From the NCBI GenBank assembly GCA_964594415.1, contig CAZQLQ010000006.1, positions 1 to 54,140 on the forward strand: a stretch of 54,140 nucleotides of DNA. The letters are read 5' to 3'. The DNA is from an uncultured Candidatus Saccharibacteria bacterium (GTDB lineage Bacteria > Patescibacteriota > CPR2 > UBA1875 > CAIMLA01). The notes below the pieces were generated by a model. The model made no database searches. It saw only the letters and a list, made by a program, of their open reading frames with translations, and was not told where the DNA came from. Positions 9,632 through 31,942 of the stretch are shown piece after piece. The first letter of the stretch is position 1. Each line of letters opens with the position of its first letter. A program made the position numbers and the translations under genes.

Positions 9632-9635
9632 TCAG

Positions 9636-10709: not shown

Positions 10710-10765
10710 CAAGTAAGTGAGATGTACAAAAAGTCCATCGAAAGTAATATAAGGTTTAAGATGGA

Positions 10766-11230: not shown

Positions 11231-11264
11231 GATTGGCATTGTAAAGATGCGGGGGTAAACAATT

Positions 11265-11293
11265 AAAAAACTCCACACAAGGCGGAGTTTTTT
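11265..11293 (-). terminator. Bidirectional-type terminator just downstream of the 16S processing stem
   Basis: aaaaaactcc-acacaaggc-ggagtttttt. Confidence 0.7.
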
Positions 11294-11297
11294 CGGC

Positions 11298-12938
<1,641 letters not shown>

Positions 12939-13027: not shown

Positions 13028-13056
13028 ATATTATCAATTTTGAGGTAAAATGTCAA
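13028..13056 (-). promoter_or_regulatory. 16S promoter
   Basis: TTGACA-17-TAATAT. Confidence 0.75.
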
Positions 13057-13103: not shown

Positions 13104-13541
13104 TTACCTTTTCTTCTTCTTAGGAAGCCATTTTTCCTTGCGCTGAATGTTTCTAAAATCAAATATCTCTTCCTTTATTTTCTTTCTTCTGTGATAAAGA
13201 AAATAAAAATTATACCCAACGACTGTTAATAGTATCAGATAGCTCCAAATTCTCCATGACAAAGTGGCAAGACGCTCAAAACGGAAAAACCAGAATACAA
13301 GTCCTACTAATACAATACCTCCATTAACCCAAATGAACTCAGAAGCATATTTCTCGATTGGCCTATCAGTTTTTGATTGTTTATAAAAATAGAAATAAGC
13401 AAAACAAAATACATAAATAAGAAAAATATATAACCCGAGCCAATACCAAATAGCTTTTGTATCAGGAGGGACGGAGAAAAAATATTCTGTATTAAATCTA
13501 GACAAAAAATTAGTTATTTTCGTCGTCATCATCACCACCAA
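13104..13541 (-). CDS. Hypothetical 3-TM membrane protein; start uncertain
   Basis: Three hydrophobic segments, basic C-terminus WLPKKKKR. Confidence 0.75.
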   Translation of the reverse strand: MVVMMTTKITNFLSRFNTEYFFSVPPDTKAIWYWLGLYIFLIYVFCFAYFYFYKQSKTDRPIEKYASEFIWVNGGIVLVGLVFWFFRFERLATLSWRIWSYLILLTVVGYNFYFLYHRRKKIKEEIFDFRNIQRKEKWLPKKKKR

Positions 13542-13734
13542 AATAATCTATTTCCGTGTCACAGTGTGAACAATAAATTCTGCCGTCTTCGTTTATCATC
13601 CTGTTGCCGCATTTTTCACAAATAGGAGAAATAAACCCATCCTCATCATCCATAGCAGTCGCATTGTCCAGCTTAATTATTAATTCATCACCGCTTATAT
13701 TTTTCTGCTCTTCTATTCCCATATCCACCTCCAA
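13510..13734 (-). CDS. Small Zn-ribbon protein
   Basis: CEKC...CSHC, acidic tail, SD ggagg. Confidence 0.65.
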   Translation of the reverse strand: MEVDMGIEEQKNISGDELIIKLDNATAMDDEDGFISPICEKCGNRMINEDGRIYCSHCDTEIDYFGGDDDDENN

Positions 13735-13840
13735 GCTTATTATACCTAAAACCAGGCATAAATAAAGAGATTTTCAAACAATTAACGAAAAGGTCAAAGA
13801 TGACCCCTTCGTTAATAATTAGTATTTTGTACTTATTTGT

Positions 13841-15742
13841 TTATTTTTTGTTTTTACCGTTTCCGTTGCCGCCCTTTTTCTCGATCGTTACAACAGGCTC
13901 TTCTTCCTCTTCAGGTTTTTGTACCCAGAAAAGATACCCGCCTAGTGCTAGAAGGAAAATTAAAGCGATGATCCCCCAGGTAGGGAATTCTTTTTCGTCG
14001 CTTTCATTGTCCTCTCCGTCTATAGGAGCAGTGGTATCGGTTGTACTGTCAGCTTTTACTTCTCCAGTTACCTCAGTCGTATCCCCTTCGCTGGCATTAA
14101 CAACCTCACTTGTTGAAGCACTGCCAGAATAATAAGAATAAGAGTAAGTAACAGGTTTTGCCGCAGGAACAGAAATATAAACAGGCATTGTTGTGGTTTC
14201 ATTCCCAGCTGCATCAACAACAATAATCTGATATGAATAGGTCTTCCCCTTTAATACTGTACCGTCCTCAAAATAATTTACTTTTCCTGGATTAAAAGTA
14301 ACAGTTTCTGAACCTGACTTCCTGATTATTTTTATGTGATCAAAAGTCGCAGCGTCTGGATTTGTCCAACTGATTATGACGCTATTGCTAGTTTGTGAAT
14401 ACCTAATTACTAAATTGTTAGCTGCACTAGGCGCCTTGGTATCAATAGTTAGCTCTTCATCGTAAGTAGCTTTGTTCCCATAGACGTCTTCCGTGTCCAA
14501 AACTACGTCATGCAGTCCTTCTTCCAAAACATCAGCGATTTCAATAGTCCAAGTATTACCATTTATTGTAGCTTCGCCACCTATATCCTCACCGTCAATA
14601 GTAATCCACAGTGTAGCTTCCGGATCATCAATAGTTCCTGAAAGAATTGGGCTTGTACTATTAACAGCCTTGGTGACCAAAGCTGCTTTAGGAGCCGTAT
14701 CGTCAATTTTTATCGTTTGAATCTTTGAACTTTTTCCGATTATTTTTGAAGCGTCTATGTCGAATAATATATAGCTTATCTCATAGATTCCACCTTTTAT
14801 AATGTTCATTTCCTCAAAGACTATTTCTAAACCGTTTTTTATTTCTTCTTTTTCTGAAGAAAAATCTTCTGGGTTTTCTGGATATCCGATTACCAAAACG
14901 CTTGCATCGGTGATAGCAAGATCAGCTAGCTCTTCGCTGGTCGCAAGCAACTCATCAGCCTCATCACCATCAATCATTATATCTGCAGGATTGATAGCTG
15001 CTTTATCTTTTCTGGAAATTAGAGTATAAATCTTTGCCTCATCGTTACTGACATCATCATAAAGATTGCCTTTGATAGTTACCGTATCATCAAAAGATTC
15101 AGTAGCCCCATATATGGCTTCGGGAGTGGTTCCCGTAACGTCTAGGCTAGTTTCCGCAATTGTGATAACTTGAGAAACAAGGCTTTGTCCAATTTTTACA
15201 AAACCCTCTTCTACGTCATCTAAATCGGGACCAGAATATACATAATACGAGACACTATATACACCTTTTTTTGCAAAGGTTAATTTGCCTGAGTCTAGGT
15301 AGCCAAGGCCTTCTATGTCATCTTTCTTTGAATCTAACGAAAATCCATCGTCATTACCAAAAGCAATAACTAGGTCGTCAGAATCTACCAAAGCTTTTTG
15401 TTCGCTGTCTGATGATAAAACCTCTACCCCATCAGCTTCTAGATTTGTCGAGTCAATTGCAACAGGATTGGAAGGAACAGTCACATCCTTAATAACTCCA
15501 TAAATCCTAGCATCGTTTTCCTCAACATCCTCAAAAACCGTTCCCTGAACTTTCACTCCGAATTCAAATTCGGTATTGAGCCCTTGAATCAAACTGTTTC
15601 CCTCAATTGATGGAGTTACAGTCAAATTCGTCGTTGTTATAGGGGCCGAAGCATAAGCGCTACCGACACCTAGAAATGCTAATTGCATAACCAAAAGAAC
15701 ATTTGTAGCAATAGCAATTTTTCGCATTATCCCTTTTAACAT
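13841..15742 (-). CDS. Surface protein: signal peptide, duplicated acidic domain, Ig-like, FN3, S/T linker, C-terminal TM
   Basis: DDTAP..SPILSGTIDD (Ig-like), SWTNP...YSYQIIVVDAAGN (FN3), TM FPTWGIIALIFLLALGGYLFW. Confidence 0.85.
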   Translation of the reverse strand: MLKGIMRKIAIATNVLLVMQLAFLGVGSAYASAPITTTNLTVTPSIEGNSLIQGLNTEFEFGVKVQGTVFEDVEENDARIYGVIKDVTVPSNPVAIDSTNLEADGVEVLSSDSEQKALVDSDDLVIAFGNDDGFSLDSKKDDIEGLGYLDSGKLTFAKKGVYSVSYYVYSGPDLDDVEEGFVKIGQSLVSQVITIAETSLDVTGTTPEAIYGATESFDDTVTIKGNLYDDVSNDEAKIYTLISRKDKAAINPADIMIDGDEADELLATSEELADLAITDASVLVIGYPENPEDFSSEKEEIKNGLEIVFEEMNIIKGGIYEISYILFDIDASKIIGKSSKIQTIKIDDTAPKAALVTKAVNSTSPILSGTIDDPEATLWITIDGEDIGGEATINGNTWTIEIADVLEEGLHDVVLDTEDVYGNKATYDEELTIDTKAPSAANNLVIRYSQTSNSVIISWTNPDAATFDHIKIIRKSGSETVTFNPGKVNYFEDGTVLKGKTYSYQIIVVDAAGNETTTMPVYISVPAAKPVTYSYSYYSGSASTSEVVNASEGDTTEVTGEVKADSTTDTTAPIDGEDNESDEKEFPTWGIIALIFLLALGGYLFWVQKPEEEEEPVVTIEKKGGNGNGKNKK

Positions 15743-15967
15743 TTTTCCTCCTTTTATCTTTGAATCCTTAAGTTATTCTGAGAAAAGTTGAAGAATCTTT
15801 GAAATACTTCAATAAATCCAGTATAACTTTTTTTATAAACTTTCTAATACTAATAGACAATTAATGATTTGTTTTGTTTTTATTATTTATTTATTTCGGA
15901 AATAGACAAACTAAAAACCGAACACCCTCCCTCCAAGTTGTATATTTTTTGACAATAAAAACTTCGA

Positions 15968-16068
15968 GGAACTGTGATCGGTTTCACCACTTGCTATTTC
16001 CCATAGGCACTTGTGAACAACCGAGTCCAACAACAGTATCGCACCCATAAGTCAAAGCAATCACTTCC
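15968..16068 (-). ncRNA. Candidate c-di-GMP-II-like riboswitch (variant), leader of the 633-aa surface protein
   Basis: P1 ggaa-gtga/tcac-ttcc, P2 tgct/agca, TGA/GGA K-turn-like element, P3, loop tcggt..ttcac complementary to 3' gtgaa-accga. Confidence 0.55.
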
Positions 16069-16168
16069 TTATATAGATATATAGATTTGTGATTAAAATT
16101 TGTTTTTGTTTTGCTCAGGTTTTGTTTTTATTTCTGTACCCCTTGTTTCCAAAAGGTTTGTAAAATTG

Positions 16169-16196
16169 ATTATAACAACATTACAGATTATGTCAA
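16169..16196 (-). promoter_or_regulatory. Sigma70 promoter upstream of leader A
   Basis: TTGACA-16-(TG)TATAAT. Confidence 0.7.
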
Positions 16197-16264
16197 CATT
16201 CAAAACCAACTATATTTATAGAAACTGCTATCAGCTTAAACAAAAATCGGTTGGGCGAAAAGAA

Positions 16265-16432
16265 CTAGTCCTTTTTAAAAAACTTTGTTTTTGCCGTACT
16301 ATAAACTTCCCCGCCTTTCTTATAAGCCTTTCTTGGAACAGTAGAAACAGAGGAAAGCAGATTCTTTGCCTTATAGACAACAAACCTAACAGACTCTTTT
16401 CTTGATCTGTTTTCAGATGATTTTCTATCCAT
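16265..16432 (-). CDS. Putative 55-aa basic peptide (below the ORF-track cutoff)
   Basis: AAGGAGG SD, ATG, MDRKSSENRSRK...KFFKKD. Confidence 0.4.
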   Translation of the reverse strand: MDRKSSENRSRKESVRFVVYKAKNLLSSVSTVPRKAYKKGGEVYSTAKTKFFKKD

Positions 16433-16612
16433 AGGTGCCTCCTTCTTTGTTAGTTTGCTTGCTTTTATTTTACCAAGTAGCTGATAAATAACAACTAGAC
16501 AAAATTTTGTTTATTTCGTATCAGTTTTAAATACTTTTATTTTTCTAACGCAGTGTGAAGTTCTCAAGATTAATAGTTCTCGTAATCACTCAATCGGTAA
16601 TCTCTATTTTAA

Positions 16613-16632
16613 AAGGGGCCTTACGGCCCCTT
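16613..16632 (-). terminator. GC-rich hairpin after the InlB-repeat gene
   Basis: aaggggcc-gtaa-ggcccctt followed by tt. Confidence 0.7.
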
Positions 16633-16638
16633 AAGTTT

Positions 16639-18837
16639 TTATTTCTTGTTCTCTTCTTCATCTGTAAACAACCAGTAGATTGCTGTAAGAATCAGTATTG
16701 CCAATGGAACAATCGCCCAATACCATTTACAGAATATAGTGTCTTCATACCCGTCGTGTAGATATTTATGAATCAACCAAGCTGCTAAACCAAACACTAC
16801 AGGCCAGGCATATAGAAGTTTAGCTTTTCTTTCCTTGTTGTGTTCATATCCATAGTATACAGAAGTACCAGCAACAAGGATTAATAGAATAATCCACCAC
16901 CAAGGACAAGCTCCTTTATCTTCTGTAGCCGTACCCTTGACCTCCTCTGCCTTCGTAGTTGTAGTAGTCTGAGGAATTGTTGTAGTAGTTGTGGTGGTAG
17001 TTGTGGTAGCGCTAGTTACACCTGTCGTACCAGCCACTCCAGTAGCAATTACTATTGGAGTAATTGGGGTAGATGGGCTAGTCGTAGGCGTAGTAACTAA
17101 TCTCCACTGAGCAACCAACGTTTTCCCGCCTAATGGCATCGTAGATGGAAATGCCGGAGACCATCCAGTAAATATATAGCCAGGCCTTGTTGGATTTGCT
17201 GGAGCAGAAATACTTGAGCCATAGTCAGCAGTAATTGGAGCAATTTCCGAACCCCCATTTGTGTCGAAGTAGATAGTATATTTGTTCGCTATCCATTTAG
17301 CGTACAGCGTCATATTGCTTTCTACGTCATCGTTAAAGTCCCAGGCGCTTGTAAGCGCCGAGTCAGAATACCAACCGTCAAAAGTGTAGCCTGGTTTTGT
17401 TGGATCTGTTGGCTCTATAATCTCATCTCCATCTTCTACTTGCTGGCTGTCAACAGGAGTTCCACCGTTTGAATTGAATATCACCGTATATGCTTCCTTG
17501 ACCCATTTTGCGTATAGATCGGTCTCGCCTGTTACTCTCATAGTTGAGAAGTTCCATGGTTGCGCAAAAGTATTGTCGTCCAGATACCAGCCAGAAAAAA
17601 CATAGTGATTTCTTGTCGGATCTGTAGGCTTTGTAATCAATTCGTTATATATAACATCCATATCGTCTATATGCGTTCCGCCGTTTGAATGAAAATCAAC
17701 CTCATAAGTATTTATCTGCCACTGCGCGTAAAGAGTGACGTCTTGCGACATTGTTATTTCATCGCCTTCAGAATATGTAGTACCGGTCCCGTCGGCTTTT
17801 GTATTCCAGTCATTAAACGTATAACCGGTTTTATATAGTCCTGCATCATTGCCATAGACTTCAATCTCTGTGCCATAGTCATATGTCCTGTTTGAGTCAG
17901 GAACAAGACCGCCAGTATTTCCATTACCATTATAGGCAAGAATGTACCTATTGAGGCCCCATTTTGCGTATAACGTTGTATTCGCATTTACTACGTCAGT
18001 AGTAAAGTTCCAATCATCAGTACAACAAGCATCCTTGTACCATCCGATAAAGTAATAATTAACTTTTGTTGGATCTGTAGGTTTTGTAATTGTGTTTCCA
18101 TATTGAACATTCGTGATAGGAGATACGCTACTTCCTCCTTTAGAGTCAAAGGTTACAGTATAAGTGGCTTTAGCGGCTGCGTTGACATATATATTATCAA
18201 TGCTATTATAACCATCATTATTTATTGTTCCACTTCCTGCTGCCCTATGATTGCTAGAAATCTGCCATCTTAAAATCACTTTAGCCTGATTGTCTAATGC
18301 TGAAGGGAGTGTAAGATTATTCAATGCCCCGCTGTTGTTCCAGCTTGCATTAGTAATTTGATAATCACTTCCGCTCACCTTTGTCCATGTGCTTCCATTA
18401 TTTAGGCTGTAATCGATATGAAAGTCTCTAGGACCATCATTTTCACTTCTTTGCTTTGATGACAAAGTCAAAGTTTTATAGCCGGTTGTGCTAAACTCAA
18501 TATACCAATAATTAGCGTTATATCCGCTATTGTAGTCCCAATCTTTTGCTGCCGCTGCTTTGTCAGTGCCTGAATCGATACCATTCGAATCATACCTTTC
18601 CCCACTCAAATGATCGCCTTCTAGTTCACTAATTCCAACATTTGCTGCAATACCAACATCCGCATATTTATCCGCTGAACCACTTGGGAAAGTCCAACCG
18701 ACTATTGTAGTTGTCGGAACTACTGCAAACGCTGGTGTAACGCCAAGAAAAAATAAATTTAAGACCAAAAGCGTTGACGTCACCACTGCAAAAATATCTT
18801 GCATCCTTTCTTTTAGATTTTTCGTCCTTACCCTCAT
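16639..18837 (-). CDS. Surface protein with 5 InlB B-repeat (Listeria-Bacteroides repeat) domains, T-rich linker and 3-TM C-terminal anchor
   Basis: Repeats Y-x-V-x-F-x-S-N-GG...P-T-K...F-x-GWY...LYAKW; N-terminal signal peptide. Confidence 0.9.
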   Translation of the reverse strand: MRVRTKNLKERMQDIFAVVTSTLLVLNLFFLGVTPAFAVVPTTTIVGWTFPSGSADKYADVGIAANVGISELEGDHLSGERYDSNGIDSGTDKAAAAKDWDYNSGYNANYWYIEFSTTGYKTLTLSSKQRSENDGPRDFHIDYSLNNGSTWTKVSGSDYQITNASWNNSGALNNLTLPSALDNQAKVILRWQISSNHRAAGSGTINNDGYNSIDNIYVNAAAKATYTVTFDSKGGSSVSPITNVQYGNTITKPTDPTKVNYYFIGWYKDACCTDDWNFTTDVVNANTTLYAKWGLNRYILAYNGNGNTGGLVPDSNRTYDYGTEIEVYGNDAGLYKTGYTFNDWNTKADGTGTTYSEGDEITMSQDVTLYAQWQINTYEVDFHSNGGTHIDDMDVIYNELITKPTDPTRNHYVFSGWYLDDNTFAQPWNFSTMRVTGETDLYAKWVKEAYTVIFNSNGGTPVDSQQVEDGDEIIEPTDPTKPGYTFDGWYSDSALTSAWDFNDDVESNMTLYAKWIANKYTIYFDTNGGSEIAPITADYGSSISAPANPTRPGYIFTGWSPAFPSTMPLGGKTLVAQWRLVTTPTTSPSTPITPIVIATGVAGTTGVTSATTTTTTTTTTIPQTTTTTKAEEVKGTATEDKGACPWWWIILLILVAGTSVYYGYEHNKERKAKLLYAWPVVFGLAAWLIHKYLHDGYEDTIFCKWYWAIVPLAILILTAIYWLFTDEEENKK

Positions 18838-19135
18838 ATATCCCCCTTTCCTTTCCCCTCCTGCTTAATATTCTATAAATCAACTATTATCTATTAAATA
18901 AATAAAATTATTTTGAGATCTTGAAAAAGTGATAGAAAATTCGTGTATATCAAAAAATAACAGAATTTCTGTGCATTCCGCTCCTATATAAGCTCAATAT
19001 TCAGGTTTTTAGTATTTGTGAGAGCTTATGATTCGAAGCAGTCACGATATAAAAAGTATATAATTCCAATGTAAAACATTTTGCTTTTTTGTTTTTATTT
19101 CTGAAACCCTCGACAAATTCCGAAGGATATGGCCT

Positions 19136-19164
19136 GATAATACACCTAAGACCAAAAAAAGTCA
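19136..19164 (-). promoter_or_regulatory. Sigma70 promoter giving a 5' leader of about 290 nt for 16639-18837
   Basis: TTGACT-17-TATTAT. Confidence 0.55.
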
Positions 19165-19179
19165 ATAATAAAGGAAAAA

Positions 19180-19908
19180 TCAATACCCTGGGGTCGGATC
19201 GATCCTTTCAATAAAATCAGCTGAGGTGTCTGAATCGGTCCCCAAATGTTCTCTTTCTAATGAGTGACCTTCATCCACATCAATACATGCCGGGTCAAAT
19301 ATCTCAGTATCGTCTCCATAGCTAATTTGATCCACTATATCGCCTTTATCGTCCCTGAGTATCACCCGATCTCCGCTGTTGCTCATTCGATCATGACTAC
19401 CCGAAAGATTTATCTTTACAACGTTATCTTCTGTTATATTTTCCCAAAAATGCCAAGTATCATTACCATGGGATAAAAGTGCAAAGCCATAAGCCGGTAT
19501 TTCGACATTTGAATTTATAATGCTTGGCCATGAATCGCCCGAAATAGACCATTTTTTCAAGCTTATTGCAACTCCTGTCGGGTTATAGAGTTCAACCCAT
19601 TCATTATCATCCTCCCTTTCAAATCTAGAGCAATCATTATCATTAAAGATTCGGCACCCGGTATCGTAATAAACCTCGTTGATAAGCACTTGCAGCTCTG
19701 GCAATTCATTTTCTCCGGTGGTGATAATGTTATTTGAAATCGTTGCCGTATCAGAGAAGTAACTTCCAGTGGAACCAATAGTAACAGCAGCCGTAATCAA
19801 AATAATATAAAGGCATTTAAAAATATTTTTCAAATTATTTTTAGTAGAGTAACTCATTCTTTTCTTTTGTTTCGCTTTTCTCTTTCTTTTTTGTCTTAAT
19901 TTTTTCAA
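19180..19908 (-). CDS. Lamin-tail-domain protein with SipW-class signal peptide (true start probably 19857)
   Basis: GSTGSYFSD signal motif; LINEVYYD...EWVELYNP...GDRVIL...VDQISYG (LTD). Confidence 0.85.
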   Translation of the reverse strand: MKKLRQKRKRKAKQKKRMSYSTKNNLKNIFKCLYIILITAAVTIGSTGSYFSDTATISNNIITTGENELPELQVLINEVYYDTGCRIFNDNDCSRFEREDDNEWVELYNPTGVAISLKKWSISGDSWPSIINSNVEIPAYGFALLSHGNDTWHFWENITEDNVVKINLSGSHDRMSNSGDRVILRDDKGDIVDQISYGDDTEIFDPACIDVDEGHSLEREHLGTDSDTSADFIERIDPTPGY

Positions 19909-20404
19909 GCTCTTTTTTGATTTTCCCTATTTCTCCATAAATAATAATAAGAGCTGGGATAAGAATAAATAGGACAAGACCCTTTGGCGTCTTTAGGAAT
20001 GATACCGCATTGCCGATATAAGGAACGCTATAAACTACTTTTCCAATTACGTTCTCTTTAATTACTTTTTCTGAGTCAGCAGATTTATTGGCATCACCTT
20101 TGACAATATAAAAGGTTGTATCTCTTTCTTGCTCAATACCTACAATTCTATGAGTAACCGTATCTGTTTCGTTTGATATCTTAAAAGTAATAATGTCGTT
20201 TATGCTATAAACATCCTGCTTTCTGTCCAAAACTACACTGTCCTTGCTGAACTCGGGTTCCATACTTCCAGATCTCACCACAAACATTCTATAACCGCTA
20301 ATTTCAAAAGAAGAAAAAATAACAAGCAATGCCATAATAGCCAATAAAATATAGGCGATAAAGCTTACTGTATTTACTAATATTGAACCCTTTTTAATTG
20401 CCAT
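19841..20404 (-). CDS. sipW: Signal peptidase I, SipW type
   Basis: VRSGSMEP, TVTHRIV (Ser-His type), VKGDAN, GKVVYSVPYIG. Confidence 0.88.
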   Translation of the reverse strand: MAIKKGSILVNTVSFIAYILLAIMALLVIFSSFEISGYRMFVVRSGSMEPEFSKDSVVLDRKQDVYSINDIITFKISNETDTVTHRIVGIEQERDTTFYIVKGDANKSADSEKVIKENVIGKVVYSVPYIGNAVSFLKTPKGLVLFILIPALIIIYGEIGKIKKELEKIKTKKKEKSETKEKNELLY

Positions 20405-20436
20405 TTTGCTGTTTTCTCCTCTTTTATTTTTATTAT

Positions 20437-20468
20437 TATACAGCAGGGTGTTAAGGCCCTGCTGTATA
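20437..20468. other. Strong intergenic hairpin between the tasA-like gene and sipW (no minus-strand U-tract)
   Basis: tatacagcaggg-tgttaagg-ccctgctgtata. Confidence 0.75.
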
Positions 20469-20478
20469 AATACGCGAA

Positions 20479-21411
20479 TTAGGATTTGATATAATCGACA
20501 AGCCCTGTTTCAAACAAATAATCAGCTGGGTGCCAACCGATCATTTGACTACCATTGAAGTCGCTTGACTTTACTAACCATATCTTAGCATTTGAGAAGC
20601 TACCAAGATTTTGATCGAAGGTGATTGTCAGACTTCCTCCACTTGAAACACCAGTATTTAGCAAGACAGATCCTGCACCTGGCCAAGGATCATTATATTT
20701 GATCAGGGAGTAATCTCCGGCTGGCAAACCTGTTGCTGTGAATGTTCCCTTGAAGGTAGAATCCATTACCCCGTAAGATAGGGTTCCCTTGATGCCATCC
20801 TGAATAACATCCCAATTCGGCTCCCCTGTTTTATTCTCCAATACTAGGTTACCGCTTAGCTGCTCACCCATTATCTCAATATTAAACACTAGGGTTTTGT
20901 CCTGATAAGTATTATCAGCGGTATCCTTCATCTTGTAACTTTCAGTAACATACATTACATAATTTTCGGTATTAGTATCAGCAGGAAGCATTCCTAAAAA
21001 CACTTTTGAATTATTAACGCCGTTTAAAGTTACATCGTAGTTATAGATTGCTTGTTTCCAGTAAAAAATGCCGTTCTTTTTGATCTCTACCGATAGACCA
21101 TAAAGTATTTGCGTACTCAAGTTGCCAACATCATTTGGAATAATCACTTTCTTAGTTATGTTGGCGGGATTGCTTCCGTTTGCATTATCTACTTTAAGGT
21201 TGCCGTACTTTACATAGCCCGGCTTCATATCAGTCAAATAGAACGGATTCAAAACGTCACTTCCCTCATCGTTAACTACAATATCCAATGTCCCAGTTGA
21301 CAATGTATTCCCGTTTATTTCAGCCGTGTCGCTAAAAAGTGCTCCGGTTGCACTAATCGACAACGCAGCTACTGAAGCAATAGTAAACAAACTCATTAAA
21401 ATTCGTTTCAT
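20479..21411 (-). CDS. TasA/CalY (camelysin)-like protein with SipW-class signal peptide
   Basis: MKRILMSLFTIASVAALSISATGALFSDTAEINGNTLSTGTLDI, MKPG motif; start refined to the ATG after SD aaaggtgg. Confidence 0.85.
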   Translation of the reverse strand: MKRILMSLFTIASVAALSISATGALFSDTAEINGNTLSTGTLDIVVNDEGSDVLNPFYLTDMKPGYVKYGNLKVDNANGSNPANITKKVIIPNDVGNLSTQILYGLSVEIKKNGIFYWKQAIYNYDVTLNGVNNSKVFLGMLPADTNTENYVMYVTESYKMKDTADNTYQDKTLVFNIEIMGEQLSGNLVLENKTGEPNWDVIQDGIKGTLSYGVMDSTFKGTFTATGLPAGDYSLIKYNDPWPGAGSVLLNTGVSSGGSLTITFDQNLGSFSNAKIWLVKSSDFNGSQMIGWHPADYLFETGLVDYIKS

Positions 21412-21531
21412 ATTACCACCTTTCTTTTTTAAAATTAATAAATCGTTTTTGGCTTCTGTTTCAAAGCTGTCGACCATAGCTTGCCCTCAAAACAAAAACC
21501 GATCAGATTCTCTCCAGATTTAAAATATCTC

Positions 21532-21640
21532 GAGAAAATGTGACCGGTTTCATTTATATCCGTAGAAATAATTACTTACTCCACAAGAACAACTGCAATT
21601 TGCAACCTTACATTCATTGCATCAATTTTTACACATTCTC
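21532..21640 (-). ncRNA. Possible degenerate c-di-GMP-II-like leader of the tasA-like operon
   Basis: TGC-AAT-GA / GGA-GTA-AGTA core and 3' TGAAACCGG, P1 gagaatgtg/cacattttctc; pseudoknot partner poor. Confidence 0.35.
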
Positions 21641-21743
21641 TTTTTTAGTTTTTTAGCTATTTGTATTTTGATGTTATACCTAAAATTTTACCTTGTCAAT
21701 GGCAAAAAATGATGAATTTAGCAAATTTGTATAAACAATTTTC

Positions 21744-22052
21744 TTATTGGCAACTCTCTGGTCTAAAGATAAAAAAAGGGGTGCTGTCTGTAGACAGCAC
21801 CCATATTGGTACACCTATTTTAATTAATCTTTTTACTTGTTTGAATTTTTCTATTTCTTGTTTTTCTTTTTTTATCATATTTACTTTTTTCCTGAAGCTC
21901 CGCTCAACAGGATTGGGGTAATTTGCCACCAGCCTTTTAGGCTGAATCTCTTTAAAGCATTTCCTGCATATTTGGAACCCCTTTTTTGTTGTTTTGATTT
22001 GTTCCCCACAAATCCCGCAATAGTTCTTCATCCTTTTATCCGCTTTAGCCAC
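21744..22052 (-). CDS. Small Zn-finger hypothetical protein
   Basis: CGIC...CRKC; SD aggagggg, GTG start. Confidence 0.5.
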   Translation of the reverse strand: MAKADKRMKNYCGICGEQIKTTKKGFQICRKCFKEIQPKRLVANYPNPVERSFRKKVNMIKKEKQEIEKFKQVKRLIKIGVPIWVLSTDSTPFFIFRPESCQ

Positions 22053-22289
22053 AAAACCCCTCCTTTAAAGGAATAATTTAATGGAAAACGAAAGCCAGTT
22101 CTCCTTTTGTCGGGATTGGTGGGAAATTACAACTATTTTTCCTTGAAGTTTGAGTAGCAAACCAGCGGATAACTGCATAGCGCTTTTTGTCCTTCATATT
22201 GTCACGAAATCTACTTCCCGCTGATTTTATTTCGTTGGCTTCATTATGATACAAAAGACCACCTCAATTCAATTATTTACAGTTTGACA

Positions 22290-22580
22290 TTAGAGTATGA
22301 CTCTTAATACTCTTGGTTCCTCTCCATGCGTACGCTGAACCCCTATTTCTTCATTTATCAAGCTAGCCATACTTGGACTTTTTGGAACCACTGCATTGCA
22401 ATGAGGACACCTACTGTGCTTACTGGGAGATGATTTTGAATTATGACTACGACCACAGTTAGAACATTCAAACCTATAATGCTTCATGAACCCTTTTTCT
22501 AAATCTTTTGCCCAAGACACAATTCCTACTCCTTTTAAATCTAGCGGACACAATACAAAAGCTCTTACCCAGGATACCAA
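22290..22580 (-). CDS. Small Zn-ribbon hypothetical protein
   Basis: CSNC...CPHC. Confidence 0.5.
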   Translation of the reverse strand: MVSWVRAFVLCPLDLKGVGIVSWAKDLEKGFMKHYRFECSNCGRSHNSKSSPSKHSRCPHCNAVVPKSPSMASLINEEIGVQRTHGEEPRVLRVIL

Positions 22581-22670
22581 TCTCTGCCAGTAAGATTCAC
22601 AACATCCCTCCTTAATAAGTAGACTCCGCTATTCGCCCTCCTTTCACCCGAAAACAACAAGTGAGAAATT

Positions 22671-22886
22671 TCAATAATCCAACATTGCATCCTCGATCGG
22701 ACGTAGATCCTTAAACAATTTGGACGCTACAATCGGTGGTTTAACTAGAGCCCTAGACCTAGCTTTTGAAATTGCCTCTTTGATAATCAAAGTACTTGAA
22801 TCAATATAAACTGGGCCTAGATTCAGCGATTTAAGCACTAAATTTAATTGATCAAAAAGTTCTTGATCCAAGGGTATCCCCTCCAA
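22671..22886 (-). CDS. Hypothetical protein
   Basis: 71-aa ORF co-oriented with neighbours; no recognised motif. Confidence 0.35.
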   Translation of the reverse strand: MEGIPLDQELFDQLNLVLKSLNLGPVYIDSSTLIIKEAISKARSRALVKPPIVASKLFKDLRPIEDAMLDY

Positions 22887-23030
22887 CCAGATTCTCTGAG
22901 TAAATAGGACCTAGCCATAATCCCCTTCAAAAAAAAGCATAAGCACCACCCCCTCACTAATTATCAATGTTCAATAAATAAAGCTAACGCTAAATTAAAA
23001 CTAACACTCATGAAAAACCATGTCAATAAA

Positions 23031-23059
23031 AAATAAGCGGGAGGGTGAACCGCTTATTT
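23031..23059 (-). terminator. Terminator after the NTG-repeat operon
   Basis: aaataagcgg-loop-ccgcttattt followed by a T-run on the minus strand. Confidence 0.75.
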
Positions 23060-23086
23060 CTTATCATATATAATGACTAATAACTT

Positions 23087-23986
23087 CTATACGGCCTTAT
23101 GTATCTTTTGCTGATGTCTTACTCTGATTGCATAGAAAGCAAGGTAGGCAATAACAATTTCTGCAATTATTACCTTGTCATACCCTTCGGCAAACCAGCC
23201 TATTCCTGTGCCATAGTGAGCAATCGTATGAACTATCCATGCTAAATATCCAAAAACTGCAGGCCATAAATACCAGAGACCCAAAATACCTTTTGGATTT
23301 TCTGTTCTAGATAGATAAAATCCGTATCCTCCTAGAAGAACTGCTAGTGCAATAACTATTGCGATACACCAAGGACAATTTTGCTCATCCCCTATCAGAA
23401 CATTTCCAGTATCAGCTCCTTTAATATCCTCGCTTCCTAAAGCGATTATCTCATTATCAGTACTTTCATTGTCTGACTCAGCAAGAGTTTGCTCAACTCC
23501 GTCAGATCTGTATGTTGCTACAAAACTACCGGAATACCCGCTAGTATGGATATTCACGCCACCGCCACTAGTTGTAATCTTTATCGTGCCACCCGAGGGA
23601 GAAGTAATTACAGTAGTTTTGGGGTTTGTGGTAGTTGTAGTAGTAGTTTCATTGTCATTGTCGCCGTCTTCGCTATTTATAGAACAATAATTGACTTCGT
23701 TAGTAACACTTAGAGAAACGTCAATATCTCCGGTTTTTACGCTGCCATCACCGGTATTTCCGTTTGCAGTATTTTCTCCAGTACTTATCTTAAGATCGAT
23801 TTCATTATCAATTGCTGCGTTATTTTCAACCTCTATCTTAGTTCCATTTTCTACAGAAATAATTGTTTTATTTACTGAGTTATAGCCTGTAATCTCATTT
23901 GAGATGTCAGCCGCCAGAGCAACCCCCCCTACCAGAAATACAGCAAAAATTGGGATAATTAATATTTTTTTACGTTTTGTTTTCAT
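23087..23986 (-). CDS. NTG-repeat protein 3: signal peptide, 1 repeat, T-rich linker, 3-TM anchor
   Basis: ISNEITGYNSVN...STGENTANGNTGDGSVKTGD; C-terminus homologous to that of 16639-18837. Confidence 0.8.
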   Translation of the reverse strand: MKTKRKKILIIPIFAVFLVGGVALAADISNEITGYNSVNKTIISVENGTKIEVENNAAIDNEIDLKISTGENTANGNTGDGSVKTGDIDVSLSVTNEVNYCSINSEDGDNDNETTTTTTTNPKTTVITSPSGGTIKITTSGGGVNIHTSGYSGSFVATYRSDGVEQTLAESDNESTDNEIIALGSEDIKGADTGNVLIGDEQNCPWCIAIVIALAVLLGGYGFYLSRTENPKGILGLWYLWPAVFGYLAWIVHTIAHYGTGIGWFAEGYDKVIIAEIVIAYLAFYAIRVRHQQKIHKAV

Positions 23987-24044
23987 GGCAGCCTCCTTTC
24001 TAATAGGTGACCCTCACTACGGCGCCAACTTTTTATGACCCATT

Positions 24045-26213
24045 TTATGCTCCACTTTTCTTTTTTTTGCCAAAATAAACTGAAAGAAACGAAAGATAAA
24101 CTATTGTCAGAAACGCCAGAATTTGCATCTTGAATTTACCCAGCATAGACAAAAAGTTGTTAGAATCGTTTGTCTGACTAATCGTATTAACACCAAGAAC
24201 GCTACTTCCTCCATCCTGGTTGCTGTTGCTTGATGCCAGAAGAACTGCATTGTTATCATTATCAGGTAATATATTTTCTAACGCTATTGATCCGTCTACA
24301 GGAACCTTCACACCTGCCGAAGTGAATATTTTAAACACACTTGAGTCAACTGGTTCAGTAGAAATATGGATTTCTGTAGGAATTTGGGTAATCACTTGCG
24401 TTGTTGCAGTAGTTTGCGCTACCTCTTTTTCTACATCTATGTTTCCATCCCAGTCCCCAAAGATATTTACTACCAGGAATACGAACTTTTTAGCCACTAC
24501 ATTAACATTCATAATGTTTGCGATGTTGGCAAGTACATTAGAGTCACCTGTTGTTATATTCCCGTTTCCGGTATTATAGTCTGCCTTGTTATCGCCGGTG
24601 TTTGCAGTGATTGAAATATTATTAGACAAAACTCCTTCATTTTCGTTGTCTATATCAATTAAGCTTGATGCATCTACCGTTGCCGTATTTTCTGACTCGG
24701 CTCCGGTATTTTCGTTAGAAGCTGCAAGGTTGCAAACATTTTCACTATCACAACCGTTATTTACTATCCCTAGATAAGGAGACAGGAGATTTTCTCCTGA
24801 CCATTGACCCGCTACATTTACTATGAAGAAAAATATAGTATCTCCTATCAAGTTTTGATTTAAAAGGTTGCTTACACTCAATTCCGTGTTTACGTCACCA
24901 GTTTGGACCGAACCACTACCAGTATTATATCCGCTTGTGTTATCACCTGTATTATTAGCAATCTTAATATTATTTAAGACTTCTGCATTATTATCGTTAT
25001 CGATATCTAGTGCATTATTTACGTTCGCTGAAGATATATTACTCGAATCAAATCCTGTGTTTTCATTACCTGCAGTTATCGCACCACCGCTATTATTTGA
25101 ATTAATCGAATTCCCTGCCAGGCTTTTTGGTATCAATAAGTCCCCTAGCCAATCCCCAAAAATGTTTAATACGCCAACAACCCCAAGATCAGAAGCAGTA
25201 AAGGAGCTGTTAATGAAATTTAACAAGTTCAGCGATACATTAGAGTCACCAGTAGTTACGTTGCCGTCGCCTGTATTGTAACTGGCGTCATTATCGCCTG
25301 TATTTGATTCGATATTAAAATTATTTGAAGCGTTCGCATCATTATCGTTATTCACAAACGTTGAGTTGTTAGTATTGATAATGGCCGAGTTAGTAGATTC
25401 GGCACCTGTATTTTCGTTTTCTGCACCAACCCTACTACCAGTCAAGGTATATTTTTCACCAGAATTAGGGTCAACGAGATAATTACCAAATAGATTCCCT
25501 GCAACATTTTCAAAAAGGAGTTTTATCTCTCCACCAGGGAGTGCAACAAAAGCGGTATTAATCATATTTAGAATAGAGAGAATTATATTTGAATCCCCTG
25601 TCTTCACGCTTCCGCTACCCGTATTGTAGTTGGCATCGTTATCTCCGGTATTTGAAGAAACAACAAGGCCATTATTTACTTCCGCCTGATTATCGTTATT
25701 TACCACTAGTTTGCTAGCATCCAATACAACCGCCTCGTTCACTGAACCCGCTCCAGTATTTTCGTTACTAACGCCAGACTCTGTTGATTCGGATCCGCTT
25801 CCTTCAGCTAAAGTAGGAATAGTTTGTCCCGACTCAGCTCCCAGATCTCCCGCAACCTCTTCATTTAGAGGACAGGACTCTGATGGATTAGCGGTAGACG
25901 AACCAGTATCTGCCGTAGGAGCCGTATTTTCGGTAGGATTGCTTGTACCCTGGGTATCGCCGGTAGTTCCCGAATTTGTTTCCTCGCTCCCAGGCAAAGC
26001 AGGAGCTGTTGGCGAGACTGGAGTCTCAGGTGCTGTCGGAGCTACTATGACTTTCGGGGTAGTAGTTGGCGTAGTCGGTAATGCTGGACGGACTGGAGCC
26101 GCAGGCAATTGAGGAGCCTCCGAGAAGGCAAGACCTAAAGGAGCCACAACTAACAAAACAGTCACAAAAGCTGTGCCTAATCTTTTTAATCTTATTAATA
26201 ATCTTGTATTCAT
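24045..26213 (-). CDS. NTG-repeat protein 2: signal peptide, P/T-rich region, 4 repeats, C-terminal TM
   Basis: Four copies of NENTG-x-x-S-x-N...NTGDN-x-x-x-YNTG-x-G-x-V-x-TGD. Confidence 0.85.
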   Translation of the reverse strand: MNTRLLIRLKRLGTAFVTVLLVVAPLGLAFSEAPQLPAAPVRPALPTTPTTTPKVIVAPTAPETPVSPTAPALPGSEETNSGTTGDTQGTSNPTENTAPTADTGSSTANPSESCPLNEEVAGDLGAESGQTIPTLAEGSGSESTESGVSNENTGAGSVNEAVVLDASKLVVNNDNQAEVNNGLVVSSNTGDNDANYNTGSGSVKTGDSNIILSILNMINTAFVALPGGEIKLLFENVAGNLFGNYLVDPNSGEKYTLTGSRVGAENENTGAESTNSAIINTNNSTFVNNDNDANASNNFNIESNTGDNDASYNTGDGNVTTGDSNVSLNLLNFINSSFTASDLGVVGVLNIFGDWLGDLLIPKSLAGNSINSNNSGGAITAGNENTGFDSSNISSANVNNALDIDNDNNAEVLNNIKIANNTGDNTSGYNTGSGSVQTGDVNTELSVSNLLNQNLIGDTIFFFIVNVAGQWSGENLLSPYLGIVNNGCDSENVCNLAASNENTGAESENTATVDASSLIDIDNENEGVLSNNISITANTGDNKADYNTGNGNITTGDSNVLANIANIMNVNVVAKKFVFLVVNIFGDWDGNIDVEKEVAQTTATTQVITQIPTEIHISTEPVDSSVFKIFTSAGVKVPVDGSIALENILPDNDNNAVLLASSNSNQDGGSSVLGVNTISQTNDSNNFLSMLGKFKMQILAFLTIVYLSFLSVYFGKKKKSGA

Positions 26214-26240
26214 TTAGACCCCCAATTAATTTATCTGGCG

Positions 26241-26268
26241 CTGGTAAGGCTCAATTGAGCCTTACCAG
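26241..26268. repeat. Perfect 28-bp palindrome between NTG genes 1 and 2
   Basis: ctggtaaggctcaattgagccttaccag. Confidence 0.9.
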
Positions 26269-26281
26269 ACCTAATCAAATA

Positions 26282-26872
26282 TTAGTTTACCTCAACATCA
26301 CTTGTGTTTACGGTTGTACTAAAATCGATAGTTACAGAGGAATCGCCTGTTTCGACGCTTCCATCACCAGTGTTGTAACTCGCTCTATTGCCGCCAGTTG
26401 TTGCTTCTATGTAAGCATCATTTGATACGCAAGCCTTATTCTCTACTTCTATCTCGAGACGATTGTTTTCGTCAATCTTAGCGATATTTGTAGACTCTGC
26501 TCCTGTAGTTTCATTGCTGATACTATAAGAAGCGCCGCAAGTGCCACCACATCCAATGCTTTCAACATCGATTTCTGTGCCGTTAGCTTCGTTTGTAGCG
26601 GTAATGCTTACGTCTGCATCACCAGTCATCACTTCGCCGTCCCCAGTGTTTTTATTTGCTTTATTATAACCGGTAGCAACTGTGCCATTAACACCATTAT
26701 GTAGTCTAACGCTGTTCTCAACTTCGACTTCTGTCTTGTTGTTTTGGTCAACCTTAGCTACGTTTAATGAACCGTATCCGGTCTCTTCGTTACCTATAGA
26801 TGCCATTGCAAAGCCTGATAGTAAGCTTACTCCAACCCCGGCAATAGCGATTTTTTTAGCTAGATCTCTCAT
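26282..26872 (-). CDS. NTG-repeat protein 1: signal peptide plus 2 repeats, no anchor
   Basis: Start refined to MRDLAKK (SD ggagg); two repeats linked by CGGTCG. Confidence 0.85.
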   Translation of the reverse strand: MRDLAKKIAIAGVGVSLLSGFAMASIGNEETGYGSLNVAKVDQNNKTEVEVENSVRLHNGVNGTVATGYNKANKNTGDGEVMTGDADVSITATNEANGTEIDVESIGCGGTCGASYSISNETTGAESTNIAKIDENNRLEIEVENKACVSNDAYIEATTGGNRASYNTGDGSVETGDSSVTIDFSTTVNTSDVEVN

Positions 26873-27034
26873 TTCATTCACCTCCCTTCTTAAATAACTT
26901 TACCTAATCAGTTAGGAGAAATAAGATGAAGGATAATTCCTCAAAATAGTTCGCCCAACTGCCGACCGTACATTTTAGCGGAGATTTTAAAAACCGACCA
27001 TATATCTAGACGTGGTGTTACAGAGTAACTGTTA

Positions 27035-27157
27035 GAAACAAGTCGGTTTCACTATTTGCGCTTCTCTATTTTGGAGTCCTCAGTGCTAGATCTTGTGACC
27101 AATCCCTTCTGAAAAGTTTGAGTTACATAAGCCCTGAGTCAAAGGCGCCCTTATTCC
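27035..27157 (-). ncRNA. Candidate c-di-GMP-II-like riboswitch (variant), leader of the NTG operon
   Basis: P1 ggaataag/cttgtttc, P2 gcgc/gcgc, TGA/GGA, P3 ctcag/ctgag, loop TTGG-TCAC complementary to 3' GTGA-AA-CCGA. Confidence 0.65.
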
Positions 27158-27225
27158 ATATTATTAAATTTTCGAATTTCGGCTTTCATTAGTATTTTTG
27201 TTTTGGTTTTTGTCTCCTTACGAAC

Positions 27226-27255
27226 ATTATAGATACAAAAAAATCCCTATGTCAA
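27226..27255 (-). promoter_or_regulatory. Sigma70 promoter upstream of leader B
   Basis: TTGACA-18-TATAAT. Confidence 0.65.
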
Positions 27256-27357: not shown

Positions 27358-29859
27358 TTATAGATCCAGGGATGGCTCTTCTGCATCAATTTCCTGTTCT
27401 TCAACACAAGCCACCGAGGCAATATAATCATTTTCATCTATTCGCATAATTCGAACGCCCTGGGTGGCTCTGGATATTTTTGAAATTGACTTGAGAGGCA
27501 CGCGAATTACTTGCCCCTTGCTAGAAATTACCATTACGTCTTCGCCAACTGAGGTAATCACCCGAACATCTACCATTTTTCCTGTTTTTGTGGTTACTAC
27601 TCCTGCTTTAATGCCCACTCCGCCCCTGTTATGGCTAGTGAATTGTTTTAGCTCAGTTCTTTTGCCATATCCGTTTTCCATCATAACCAAAAGCTCTGCG
27701 TCATTTATAACAATATCCATTCCAACTACTTTATCGTTTTTCTTGAGCCTAATTCCACGAACGCCCCTCGCGCTTCTTCCCATTGGTCGAACGTTTTTCT
27801 CGCTGAATCTGATCGCCTGAGCAAGGCTTGTAGCCATAATTATTTCATCATTTCCAGAGGTCTGCTTGACCCACCTCAGCTCATCACCCTTATCAAGTCC
27901 AATCGCTATAATTCCGGTCTTACGAATATTTTCAAACGCAGCAACCGAGGTTTTCTTCACCGTTCCCAATGTTGTTGCCATCATTAAAAATTTATCTTTT
28001 TCAAACTTCTCAATATTAATAATCGAAGTTACTTTCTCTTCAGGAGCAAGCTGAACCAAGTTTACGACTGGCTGACCTTTTGCTGTTCTTGAAACCATCG
28101 GAATCTCCCAAATCTTGATTTGGAAAACTCTACCAAGATTCGTAAACAACAAGAGATTGTCATGATTTCTCGTTTGAATTAGTTGCTGAACGACATCTTC
28201 CTCTTTGATCCCTCCTGTAACCCCTTTTCCGCCCCTTCCTTGAGATTTATAGGTAGAACTAAGCATCCTCTTGATATAACCACCATTTGTGAGGGTTACT
28301 ATCACATCTTCGTTTGGAATCAAATCTTCTTCGTTGAATTTATTTAAAGAATGACCGACTAGTTTTGTTCTTCTTTCGTCGCCATATTTTTCTTTGATCT
28401 CAATCAATTCGTCTTTGACTACTGCAAGTATCTTTTCTTCATGTGCAAGTAAATCCTCAAGATAGGCTATCAACTTCTGAAGTTCATTATATTCATCCTC
28501 TATCTTTTTTCTTTCAAGCCCAGCCAGGGTTCTCAGTTGCATTGCGAGAATTGCAAGAACCTGAGGCTCCGAAAAACCAAATCTGCTCATTAAGTTTTGC
28601 TTGGCTTCTTCCTGACTCGAGCTCTCCTTGATTGTCTGAATTACTTCGTCAATATTTTCAAGCGCCTTGATAAGCCCCTCTAAAATATGTGCGCGGTCTT
28701 TAGCTTTTCTAAGTTCAAACTCGCTTCTTCTTGTTACAATAATCTTCCTATGCTTAATAAACTCCTCAAGGATCATTTTAAGATTAAGAAGTCTTGGCTG
28801 AATACCGTCTACAAGAGCAATCATATTAAAGCCAAAAGACGTTTGCATCGACGTCAACTTGTAAAGCTGGTTTAAAATCTTATTCGCATAAGCATCTTTT
28901 TTGAGCTCAATAATTATTCTGACCGAAGTCTTCCTATCCGATTCGTCCCTAATATCCGAAATACCAACGACTTTCTTCTCTTTTACAAGTTCTGCAATTT
29001 TGGTAATCAAACTAGCTTTATTTACCTGATAAGGCAATTCGGAAATGAGGATATGCTGGTCTCCGCGTTTTCCCTCTTCTATTTCGGCTACTGCACGCAT
29101 TATAATACTTCCTCGCCCGCTCGCATAAGCAAGTTTGATCTGCTCGGGATCAAATATTTGTCCTCCTGTAGGAAAATCAGGACCAACAATATGCTTCATC
29201 AGATCGTCTATAGTCGCATTTTCGTTGTCTATAAGCTCAATCAAGCCGTTTACTAGCTCAGATAAGTTATGGGGCGGTATATTTGTCGCCATACCAACTG
29301 CAATCCCCATTTGGCCGTTCAAAAGCAAAACAGGAAGGCGAGTAGGGAGAATCTTTGGCTCCTTAAGAGAACCGTCATAGTTGGGTACGAAGTCAATAGT
29401 ATCCTTATCTATATCAGATAGCATTTCTTCAGCGGCCTTGGTCATTCTGGCTTCGGTATAACGCATAGCTGCAGCAGAATCTCCGTCCATCGACCCAAAG
29501 TTACCTTGTCCATCAACTAGAGGGTAGCGCATTGACCAGTATTGCGCCATACGAACCATAGATTCATAAACAGCTGAATCCCCATGCGGGTGATACTTAC
29601 CCAAAACTTCACCGACAATTAACGCAGATTTACGAAATTTGGTATTTGAACGAATCCCAAGAACGCTCATTGCGTATAGAATACGGCGATGAACCGGCTT
29701 CAAACCATCGCGAACATCAGGTAGAGCTCTCGATACTATAACGCTCATAGCGTAGTCAAGAAAGCTCTCTCGCATCTCAAGGCTTATTTCACGATCTTTT
29801 ATATATCCTATCTCTTCACCAATTGTTAATTGGTTTTCACTTCTTTCTTTTTTTGCCAT
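27358..29859 (-). CDS. gyrA: DNA gyrase subunit A
   Basis: [14 protein letters not shown] catalytic Tyr, GyrA-box QGRGGKG, CTD blades. Confidence 0.98.

Positions 29860-29887: not shown

Positions 29888-31942
<2,055 letters not shown>

Follow-up and report, generated by a model that had tools for sequence, protein, structure and literature searches.

Here we describe a cluster of cell-surface genes of ~13 kb (positions 13841-27255) in a 54,140-nucleotide (nt) stretch of contig CAZQLQ010000006.1 (NCBI GenBank assembly GCA_964594415.1), hereafter the window, from an uncultured Candidatus Saccharibacteria bacterium of the UBA1875 lineage of Patescibacteriota. The cluster consists of cell-envelope genes in four main units, operon A (A1-A2-A3), operon B (B1-B2-B3), C and D, all of them on the minus strand and flanked by gyrA and the 16S rRNA gene. 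Our analyses point to leader-attenuated control of these surface-structure genes, with a leader RNA family that is absent from Rfam. Seven of the cluster proteins carry N-terminal signal-like segments and one is a peptidase; signal peptides and membrane anchors were called by eye from the sequence.

A preliminary description of this DNA, made from its letters, had placed eight genes, four promoters, leaders of 250-420 nt and two hairpins lacking a U tract in the cluster, and all of these were found where it had put them. Its count of four transcription units held for the main units and was too low for the cluster as a whole, in which at least five small open reading frames (ORFs) had been overlooked. 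The near-consensus promoter claimed for each unit was confirmed as follows.

27226-27255, minus strand: A1 promoter, TTGACA-18-TATAAT, 12/12
16169-16196, minus strand: D promoter, TTGACA-16-TATAAT with TG, 12/12
21671-21699, minus strand: B1 promoter, TTGACA-17-TAACAT, 10/12
19137-19165, minus strand: C promoter, TTGACT-17-TATTAT, 10/12

The A1 and D promoters are the only perfect matches to TTGACA-N16-18-TATAAT in the whole 54 kb (chance expectation 0.05), and the A1 promoter is kept in two relatives (loci L001 and L002). A simple promoter scan of the region found no overall excess of promoter-like sites (47 vs 47.9 by chance); the non-random part is the quality and placement of the four promoters, not the number of sites.

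Between each promoter and its first gene lies a long leader, with lengths counted from the inferred transcription starts.

26873-27219, minus strand: A1 leader, ~347 nt
26987-27151, minus strand: A1-type core, with helix P0, joining strand J(UUUGAC), P2 with internal UGGUCAC, P3, and terminator hairpin 26989-27050 followed by U5
21412-21664, minus strand: B1 leader, ~250 nt, with terminator hairpin 21494-21551 followed by U5, homologous to the D-type terminator
18838-19130, minus strand: C leader, ~290 nt, with a 5' hairpin, the sequence CAGAAATAAAAACAAAA, and only a weak hairpin followed by U6
15743-16162, minus strand: D leader, ~420 nt, with a 5' hairpin, an A/C-rich tract, core 15911-16064 (including terminator 15913-15985) and an AT-rich tail

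The A1 leader runs from an A/C-rich 5' tract through a structured domain, the terminator hairpin, a GGTCGGC box and a long stem to the ribosome-binding site; in the B1 leader a GGTCGAC box (21469-21475) sits in a hairpin loop. Aligning all four leaders globally with MAFFT was uninformative, and motif anchoring together with the sequences of relatives was needed. The shared leader motif that had been looked for was found in three of the four: GAAACCG-N30-60-CGGTTTTT has three matches in the window, confined to the A1, B1 and D leaders, at a chance expectation of 0.01. In each of them the motif region folds as a long hairpin with U5 behind it (z between -2.5 and -6.0), built like a terminator from an A tract, a G+C stem and a U tract.

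For the A1-type leaders, RNAalifold on plain MAFFT alignments predicted three helices upstream of the terminator, besides the terminator itself. P0 is the closing helix, UUUGAC is left unpaired, the long P2 has UGGUCAC inside it, and P3 is small; compensatory changes among three sequences affect 7 of the 35 pairs. In the D type, P2 came out at the corresponding position. The RNA shared by A1 and D thus reads P0, the joining strand UUUGAC, P2 around (U)GGUCAC, GUGAAACC and a terminator of the form AAACCG...CGGUUUUU. A covariance model was built from the A1-type leaders alone and searched against 81 kb with filters off. Directly after the training sequences came the leader of the TasA-family gene of 'Patescibacteria group bacterium UBA1875' (22.9 bits), then the three D leaders at 15.5-17.2 bits, and noise began at 10.8 bits. 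In an alignment of seven such sequences from about four genomes, fitted to the model, 93.4% of cells were paired vs 77.8% in shuffles, and 18 two-sided pair changes were counted vs 9.0 +/- 1.9 in shuffled alignments (0/500 reached 18; slid controls gave 1-7); 9 of the 11 pairs of P2 covaried. By these comparisons, the A1 leader, the D leader and the UBA1875 TasA leader are one structured RNA family, in which a junction-like domain precedes an intrinsic terminator, and we have moderate confidence in a conserved structured leader domain backed by covariation. In the window's own TasA leader (B1), each terminator stem aligns with its counterpart in the D-type terminators, and three pairs are compensatory. 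More distant TasA leaders (L006, L007 and L057-L059) gave only noise in the covariance search and still show a promoter, a hairpin with T tract and GGTCGAT.

The leaders are also under selection. Identity to L001 is 81-90% in the A1 leader and 61% at third codon positions of A1, and the D leader, at about 90% identity over ~165 nt in the window, L027 and L026, is far better conserved than the D protein. Beyond this lineage, most TasA leaders contain, by eye, a promoter, a hairpin with T tract and a ribosome-binding site, and a GGTCGR[CT] box 40-130 nt upstream of the start codon was found in 15 of 36 TasA and A1 leaders from many lineages (chance 0.03 per leader), often in a hairpin loop and, in many lineages, downstream of the terminator. 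A second lineage (L004, L051, L054) has a different motif, ACCGYAAACGGAGG...T5, common to its TasA and A1 leaders. In two of these loci (L051 at about 250-470 and L054 at about 2900-3060) we also noted a small conserved ORF that resembles YezD/DUF2292 by eye (..GWGSVE..VQD.KVTQI..) and stops about 40 nt short of the terminator in the leader of the A1-like gene.

Nothing in the cluster matched Rfam at gathering score, including GEMM and every other family, and at E <= 5 only four matches appeared, each far below its gathering score and none to a riboswitch. Two other explanations of the leaders were rejected. Leader-peptide attenuation does not fit, the short ORF of the A1 leader having no ribosome-binding site at a working distance and not being conserved in L001; nor does a miniature inverted-repeat transposable element (MITE) or repetitive extragenic palindromic (REP)-like repeat, given the fixed orientation to the gene, the orthologous position in relatives and the differing interiors.

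The second shared element of the two operons is a hairpin directly after the first gene.

26241-26268, minus strand: hairpin after A1, -28.4 kcal/mol, z = -5.0, no U tract
20437-20468, minus strand: hairpin after B1, -23.4 kcal/mol, z = -5.4, no U tract

Both run into A-rich sequence. A hairpin is present in the TasA-SipW spacer of 16 of 17 relatives and in the A1-A2 spacer of 11 of 15 distinct operons; the hairpin sequences differ from locus to locus while the position is kept, and the A1-A2 hairpin carries compensatory changes between the window and L001/L003. Judged by this recurrence, both operon types are built with a conserved hairpin behind gene 1, which is not there by chance, and the earlier observation that an anchor-less subunit comes first and is followed by a hairpin without a U tract is true of operon A and operon B alike.

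Operon A encodes a secreted subunit, a large anchored protein and a small protein with a multi-span anchor, in this order.

26282-26872, minus strand: A1, 196 amino acids (aa), signal peptide, two ~80-aa A repeats, no anchor
24045-26213, minus strand: A2, 722 aa, four A repeats at a ~117-aa period, C-terminal membrane anchor
23087-23986, minus strand: A3, 299 aa, one A repeat, Thr-rich linker, C-terminal multi-span anchor
23025-23058, minus strand: terminator-like hairpin with T tract after A3

A1 has no C-terminal membrane segment. The N-termini of A1, A2 and A3, like those of C and D, show by eye a charged start, a hydrophobic stretch and an AxA-like site. The A repeat is an Asn/Gly/Thr-rich unit of ~80 aa (NENTGxxSxN...N.A...N...NTGDN.A.YNTG.G.V.TGD). 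An early genome scan with the A1 alignment found nothing and picked up signal-peptide patterns instead, and a word-indexed profile search gave just 7 proteins; an exhaustive profile search was required, which returned at least 3768 representative clusters at E <= 1e-3, of which 632 passed E <= 1e-30, with members of up to ten repeats. The few named members are each a 'hypothetical protein' of CPR2 or Chisholmbacteria. No Pfam or NCBIfam model matched the repeat, no PDB relative was found by sequence or profile, and an AlphaFold model of A1 (14-row alignment) was discarded at a predicted local distance difference test (pLDDT) score of 35.5. The small anchor-less, 700-1000-aa and ~270-aa proteins of the three-gene layout recur together in many metagenome contigs. 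A3 and C share a homologous C-terminal multi-span module, CPW...WPxVFGxxAW..H, after a Thr-rich linker (BLASTP E 2e-10). In the window this module occupies 23087-23400 and 16639-16950; it also terminates a gene 3' of the SipW or lamin tail domain (LTD) genes in L006 (2123-3355) and L007 (8016-9023), and may be a common anchoring or sorting domain for which Pfam holds no model.

Operon B had been proposed to encode a fibre-type system, and by homology it is the Patescibacteria version of a TasA/SipW cassette.

20479-21411, minus strand: B1, 310 aa from MKRIL, TasA/camelysin family, with a SipW-type signal and an additional beta domain at the C-terminus, no anchor
19841-20404, minus strand: B2, signal peptidase I of SipW/archaeal type
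19180-19857/19908, minus strand: B3, SipW-type signal and lamin tail domain (PF00932), likely start at ATG 19857, overlapping the end of B2

The longest B1 ORF opens at ATG 21477, inside the conserved leader box ATGGTCGAC (21469-21477); the true start is likely MKRIL at 21411, since it matches all homologues and is preceded by a GGTGG ribosome-binding site. B1 itself has no Pfam match at E <= 0.01, and its membership of the TasA/camelysin family is assigned by transitive homology, because 25 of 26 aligned homologues match PF12389 and the family profile matches Bacillus subtilis TasA 8AUR (E 6.5e-4) and 5OF1. NCBI labels the homologues 'TasA family protein'. B1 carries the motif T-x-A-x-F-S-D-T, invariant or nearly so in the family alignment, and B3 likewise has the SipW-type ..A.FSDT.. 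motif. An AlphaFold monomer of B1 showed two confident beta domains (pLDDT 81.7) after ~50 disordered N-terminal residues, the extra C-terminal domain measuring ~115 aa; Foldseek with this model matched generic jelly-roll and Ig-like structures alone and missed TasA, probably owing to the two-domain model. B2 scored 98.1 bits on TIGR02228 (cut-off 51.85) and, at 120 bits, fell short of the SipW equivalog cut-off of 190, and B3 scored 20.8 bits on TIGR04088 (cut-off 19). No match to a TapA-like accessory or anchor protein was found in operon B, the third gene of which encodes the LTD protein. The peptidase follows TasA in every relative examined, and an LTD protein is often next.

C and D had been described as adhesins, and both look adhesin-like by their domains, each with a membrane anchor.

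16639-18837, minus strand: C, 732 aa, five Flg_new (InlB B-repeat) domains, Thr-rich linker, multi-span anchor as in A3
16613-16632, minus strand: C terminator
13841-15742, minus strand: D, 633 aa, variable N-terminal part, Big_13 and fn3 domains, C-terminal membrane anchor
13782-13815, minus strand: hairpin downstream of D

D-like proteins of the window, L027 (4769-6493) and L026 (4244-4748) keep the signal peptide and the C-terminal fn3-stalk-anchor part. They can be aligned only over the last 230 aa, the C-terminal third, at 37% identity, and their N-terminal halves are unalignable. A variable head behind a leader of ~90% identity is the pattern expected of a diversifying binding head.

All close relatives of the window's proteins come from metagenome-assembled genomes of Patescibacteria (candidate phyla radiation, CPR). 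Close relatives with GyrA 92% identical retain the order gyrA, leader, A1 and A2. L027 carries gyrA, A1, A2, a fasciclin gene and a D-like gene with both leader types intact, and it has a separate gyrA terminator ahead of the A1 promoter while retaining the leader hairpin; L026 carries A2, A3 and, further on, a D-type leader with a D-like gene. TasA/SipW/LTD operons have A-family genes as neighbours or as members in L004, Chisholmbacteria (L022-L024) and L054, as well as in the window; in L054 the A operon is followed by TasA-SipW-LTD, and in two of the TasA-linked lineages an A repeat is fused to the LTD protein. The parts are, on this comparison, modular and recurrently associated, not a fixed island. 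Two further features of these clusters were noted: a sortase gene in Chisholmbacteria L022-L024 (8001-13739) and L054 (7267-7920), none being seen in the window cluster, and a SipW peptidase fused to an LTD domain in L022.

The small ORFs in and beside the cluster, and the housekeeping genes that delimit it, are the following.

22671-22886, minus strand: small ORF, 71 aa, in the gap between A3 and the B1 promoter
22290-22487, minus strand: small zinc-ribbon ORF, 65 aa, in the same gap
21744-22052, minus strand: small zinc-ribbon ORF, 102 aa, with its own terminator (21779-21802)
16265-16432, minus strand: small basic ORF, 55 aa, strong ribosome-binding site, ahead of the D promoter
13510-13722: zinc-ribbon ORF just past the cluster end at 13841, between D and the 16S promoter
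13104-13541: membrane-protein ORF, likewise between D and the 16S promoter
11401-12860, minus strand: 16S rRNA gene
27358-29859, minus strand: gyrA
29888-31942, minus strand: gyrB

The gap between A3 and the B1 promoter spans 1.6 kb, with small ORFs at 21744-22886. Of the three CxxC...CxxC zinc-ribbon ORFs, two are preceded by strong ribosome-binding sites and one ends at a terminator of its own. Neither the small gap ORFs nor the zinc-ribbon ORF past the cluster end had a homologue in any fetched locus, those of leader-carrying relatives included. Nearly every gene of the window is on the minus strand, its GC content is low (about 0.34-0.43), and housekeeping genes flank the cluster on either side, including PheRS, an L,D-transpeptidase, Ddl and a Mur ligase; the GyrA protein shares 66% identity with its UBA1875 counterpart. 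Three DNA sequencing runs contained the same strain and showed no variation, and no RNA run was found to contain this sequence. Downstream of the 16S rRNA gene lie a tRNA-Ile gene and a tandem pair of tRNA-Ala(TGC) genes (9402-12860, minus strand) with spacers of about 0.7 and 0.9 kb; a 23S rRNA gene was not found in the remaining 9 kb past them, and the rRNA genes therefore seem unlinked. Two promoter-like sites lie upstream of the 16S gene (13028-13056 and 12908-12936). Upstream of gyrB (32115-36632, minus strand) are a 683-aa protein with no Pfam match and an 818-aa P-loop ATPase with weak HerA/TrwB-type matches, which may be parts of a DNA-transfer or secretion apparatus.

Taken at the level of mechanism, leader-terminator attenuation with signal-dependent read-through, combined with the hairpin after the first gene, is the explanation that we favor, at a probability slightly better than even (about 0.55). 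The strong promoters would fire and transcription would halt by default at the leader terminator, until a small ligand or an RNA-binding protein acted as a signal on the upstream domain and led to read-through, so that A1, D and probably TasA would rise together. The conserved G+C-rich hairpin after gene 1 would end or stabilise part of the operon transcripts, and the anchor-less first product (A1, TasA) would thereby be in excess over the downstream products. A bolder version, which we consider possible at rather long odds, is that the A1/D/TasA leader is a new Patescibacteria-specific RNA, either riboswitch-like or acting by protein-dependent antitermination, that jointly switches on a conserved surface set of a TasA-type fibre, a second and previously unknown fibre or coat made of the A repeat, and a variable-headed adhesin.

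Several observations weigh against this explanation. Termination, read-through and co-expression are all things that we infer, and the covariation comes from the seven sequences and the model-fitted alignment described above. A mutually exclusive antiterminator helix was not established; the candidates, pairing of GGUCAC with GUGAAACC or a UUUGAC-GGUCA pseudoknot, were found by hand, and the blocks concerned are invariant, hence show no covariation. The kinship of all four leaders, as first proposed, stood for A1 and D as one family and failed in part for the other two. B1 shares only the terminator, its leader scoring 8.2 bits against the upstream domain, which is noise; C has no match to the structured domain in the covariance search and shares with the D leader only the 5' hairpin and the A/C-rich tract, including CAGAAATAAAAACAAAA, a 17-mer that is exact in both. 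In UBA1875, TasA directly follows gyrA and the A operon is absent, and the hairpin in that leader could be the simple end of gyrA transcription. Many TasA cassettes and A operons stand alone, and of the linkage expected across relatives, the modules are relinked in several whereas the whole cluster is not conserved as a block. Finally, the leader terminators could be fixed dampers or insulators instead of switches.

That last possibility, which we judge unlikely, would make the hairpins ordinary constitutive terminators that block upstream read-through (from gyrBA or the small ORFs) or damp strong promoters without any sensing, the conserved upstream blocks then serving mRNA stability or translation. 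Each hairpin does have the classical intrinsic form, the window has no terminator between gyrA and the A1 promoter, the UBA1875 hairpin is short and follows gyrA, and no alternative antiterminator was found; however, the hairpins lie downstream of the window's two best promoters, and L027 has its own gyrA terminator yet retains the leader hairpin. Pure insulation also leaves aside that the 100 nt upstream of the terminator are conserved with compensatory changes across the leaders of different genes, and that the D leader is far better conserved than the D gene. If UUUGAC, GGUCAC and GGUCGAY were instead protein-binding sites, a dedicated RNA- (or DNA-) binding regulator would set read-through or translation of A, TasA and D; this is a sub-case of the attenuation mechanism with another sensor, for which the zinc-ribbon proteins are possible candidates, and we think it improbable. 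The GGTCGAY box, which many lineages have past the terminator and in a hairpin loop, the short invariant single-stranded blocks and the three zinc-ribbon ORFs agree with such a regulator, but those ORFs lack homologues in the fetched leader-carrying relatives, no RNA-binding domain was recognised, and the covariation of P0 and P2 argues that the RNA fold itself matters.

The remaining alternative sees no functional unit at all, surface genes simply piling up in a variable region after gyrA, with leaders as relics of the duplication of a promoter-leader cassette. The gene order of UBA1875 agrees with this, as do the TasA cassettes that adjoin polysaccharide genes (L004, L007 and others), the six A operons that have no TasA nearby in flanks of 4 kb or more, and the lineage-specific small ORFs of the gap. 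Mere accumulation sits poorly, however, with the four or more separate lineages in which A-family genes adjoin or sit within TasA/SipW/LTD operons, the A repeat being fused to LTD proteins in two of them, with the recurrence of gyrA-A1-A2 ... D in L027 with both leader types intact, and with the GGTCGAY box in TasA and A1 leaders well outside this lineage, and we regard it as very unlikely.

Parts of the system have counterparts elsewhere. In fimbrial operons such as pap, an intercistronic stem-loop follows the major-subunit gene; operons A and B likewise have a stable hairpin, without a U tract, directly after the gene of the first, anchor-less and presumably most abundant subunit, but belong to a different envelope and assembly, with no chaperone-usher system. 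In B. subtilis, tapA-sipW-tasA is controlled by SinR-type repression, whereas operon B has a long leader with a terminator. Operon B resembles tapA-sipW-tasA in its second secreted protein (B3) with the same SipW-type signal peptide, and differs from it in putting the subunit first, followed by the conserved hairpin, in its accessory, an LTD protein rather than TapA, and in the extra C-terminal beta domain of B1; any fibre that it forms is putative. A TasA/camelysin subunit with an adjacent SipW-type peptidase is common to operon B, tapA-sipW-tasA and the archaeal TasA-like bundling pili (PMC9245690). A survey of PF12389 lists TasA homologues in Patescibacteria (PMC9245690), and the TasA cassette of this group is already known from annotation.

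For the leaders, the nearest parallel is found in riboswitch-controlled adhesin and pilin genes of Firmicutes, such as the cyclic di-GMP (c-di-GMP) riboswitch Bc2 in the 5' untranslated region (UTR) of the B. thuringiensis collagen adhesin gene (PMC4933901). In both cases a long leader with a structured domain and an intrinsic terminator precedes surface genes, and copies of one leader family stand before several unlinked surface units. Unlike those riboswitches, the cluster leaders match neither GEMM nor any Rfam family, even at the permissive threshold, they may have no ligand, and they lack a defined antiterminator. Family A, in turn, is secreted, Asn/Gly/Thr-rich and imperfectly repeated, with a small soluble member first and anchored paralogues next, as in curli CsgA and Fap; its repeat is ~80 aa vs ~20-40 aa, there is no match to a solved structure, and there are no nucleator or secretion-channel genes. 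The loose resemblance to functional amyloid or beta-solenoid proteins is only a lead. In the literature searched, we found no description of the leader RNA family, of the three-gene A-repeat module tied to TasA/LTD, or of the shared operon design.

Patescibacteria make up a large share of bacterial diversity, and their cultivated members live attached to other microbes. Knowledge of this attachment concerns the type IV pili of Saccharibacteria, and the regulation of surface genes is essentially unknown. The cluster contributes an RNA family outside Rfam that is better conserved than the genes behind it and stands ahead of three kinds of surface gene. It also adds a very large protein family without a Pfam model, in a fixed three-gene layout and repeatedly beside TasA/SipW/LTD cassettes, and a design rule common to both operon types, with the major subunit first and then a hairpin. 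If the leader is a Patescibacteria-specific switch RNA for this surface set, it would be a control point of host-cell attachment, and the signal of such a switch would reveal what these cells sense before remodelling their surface.

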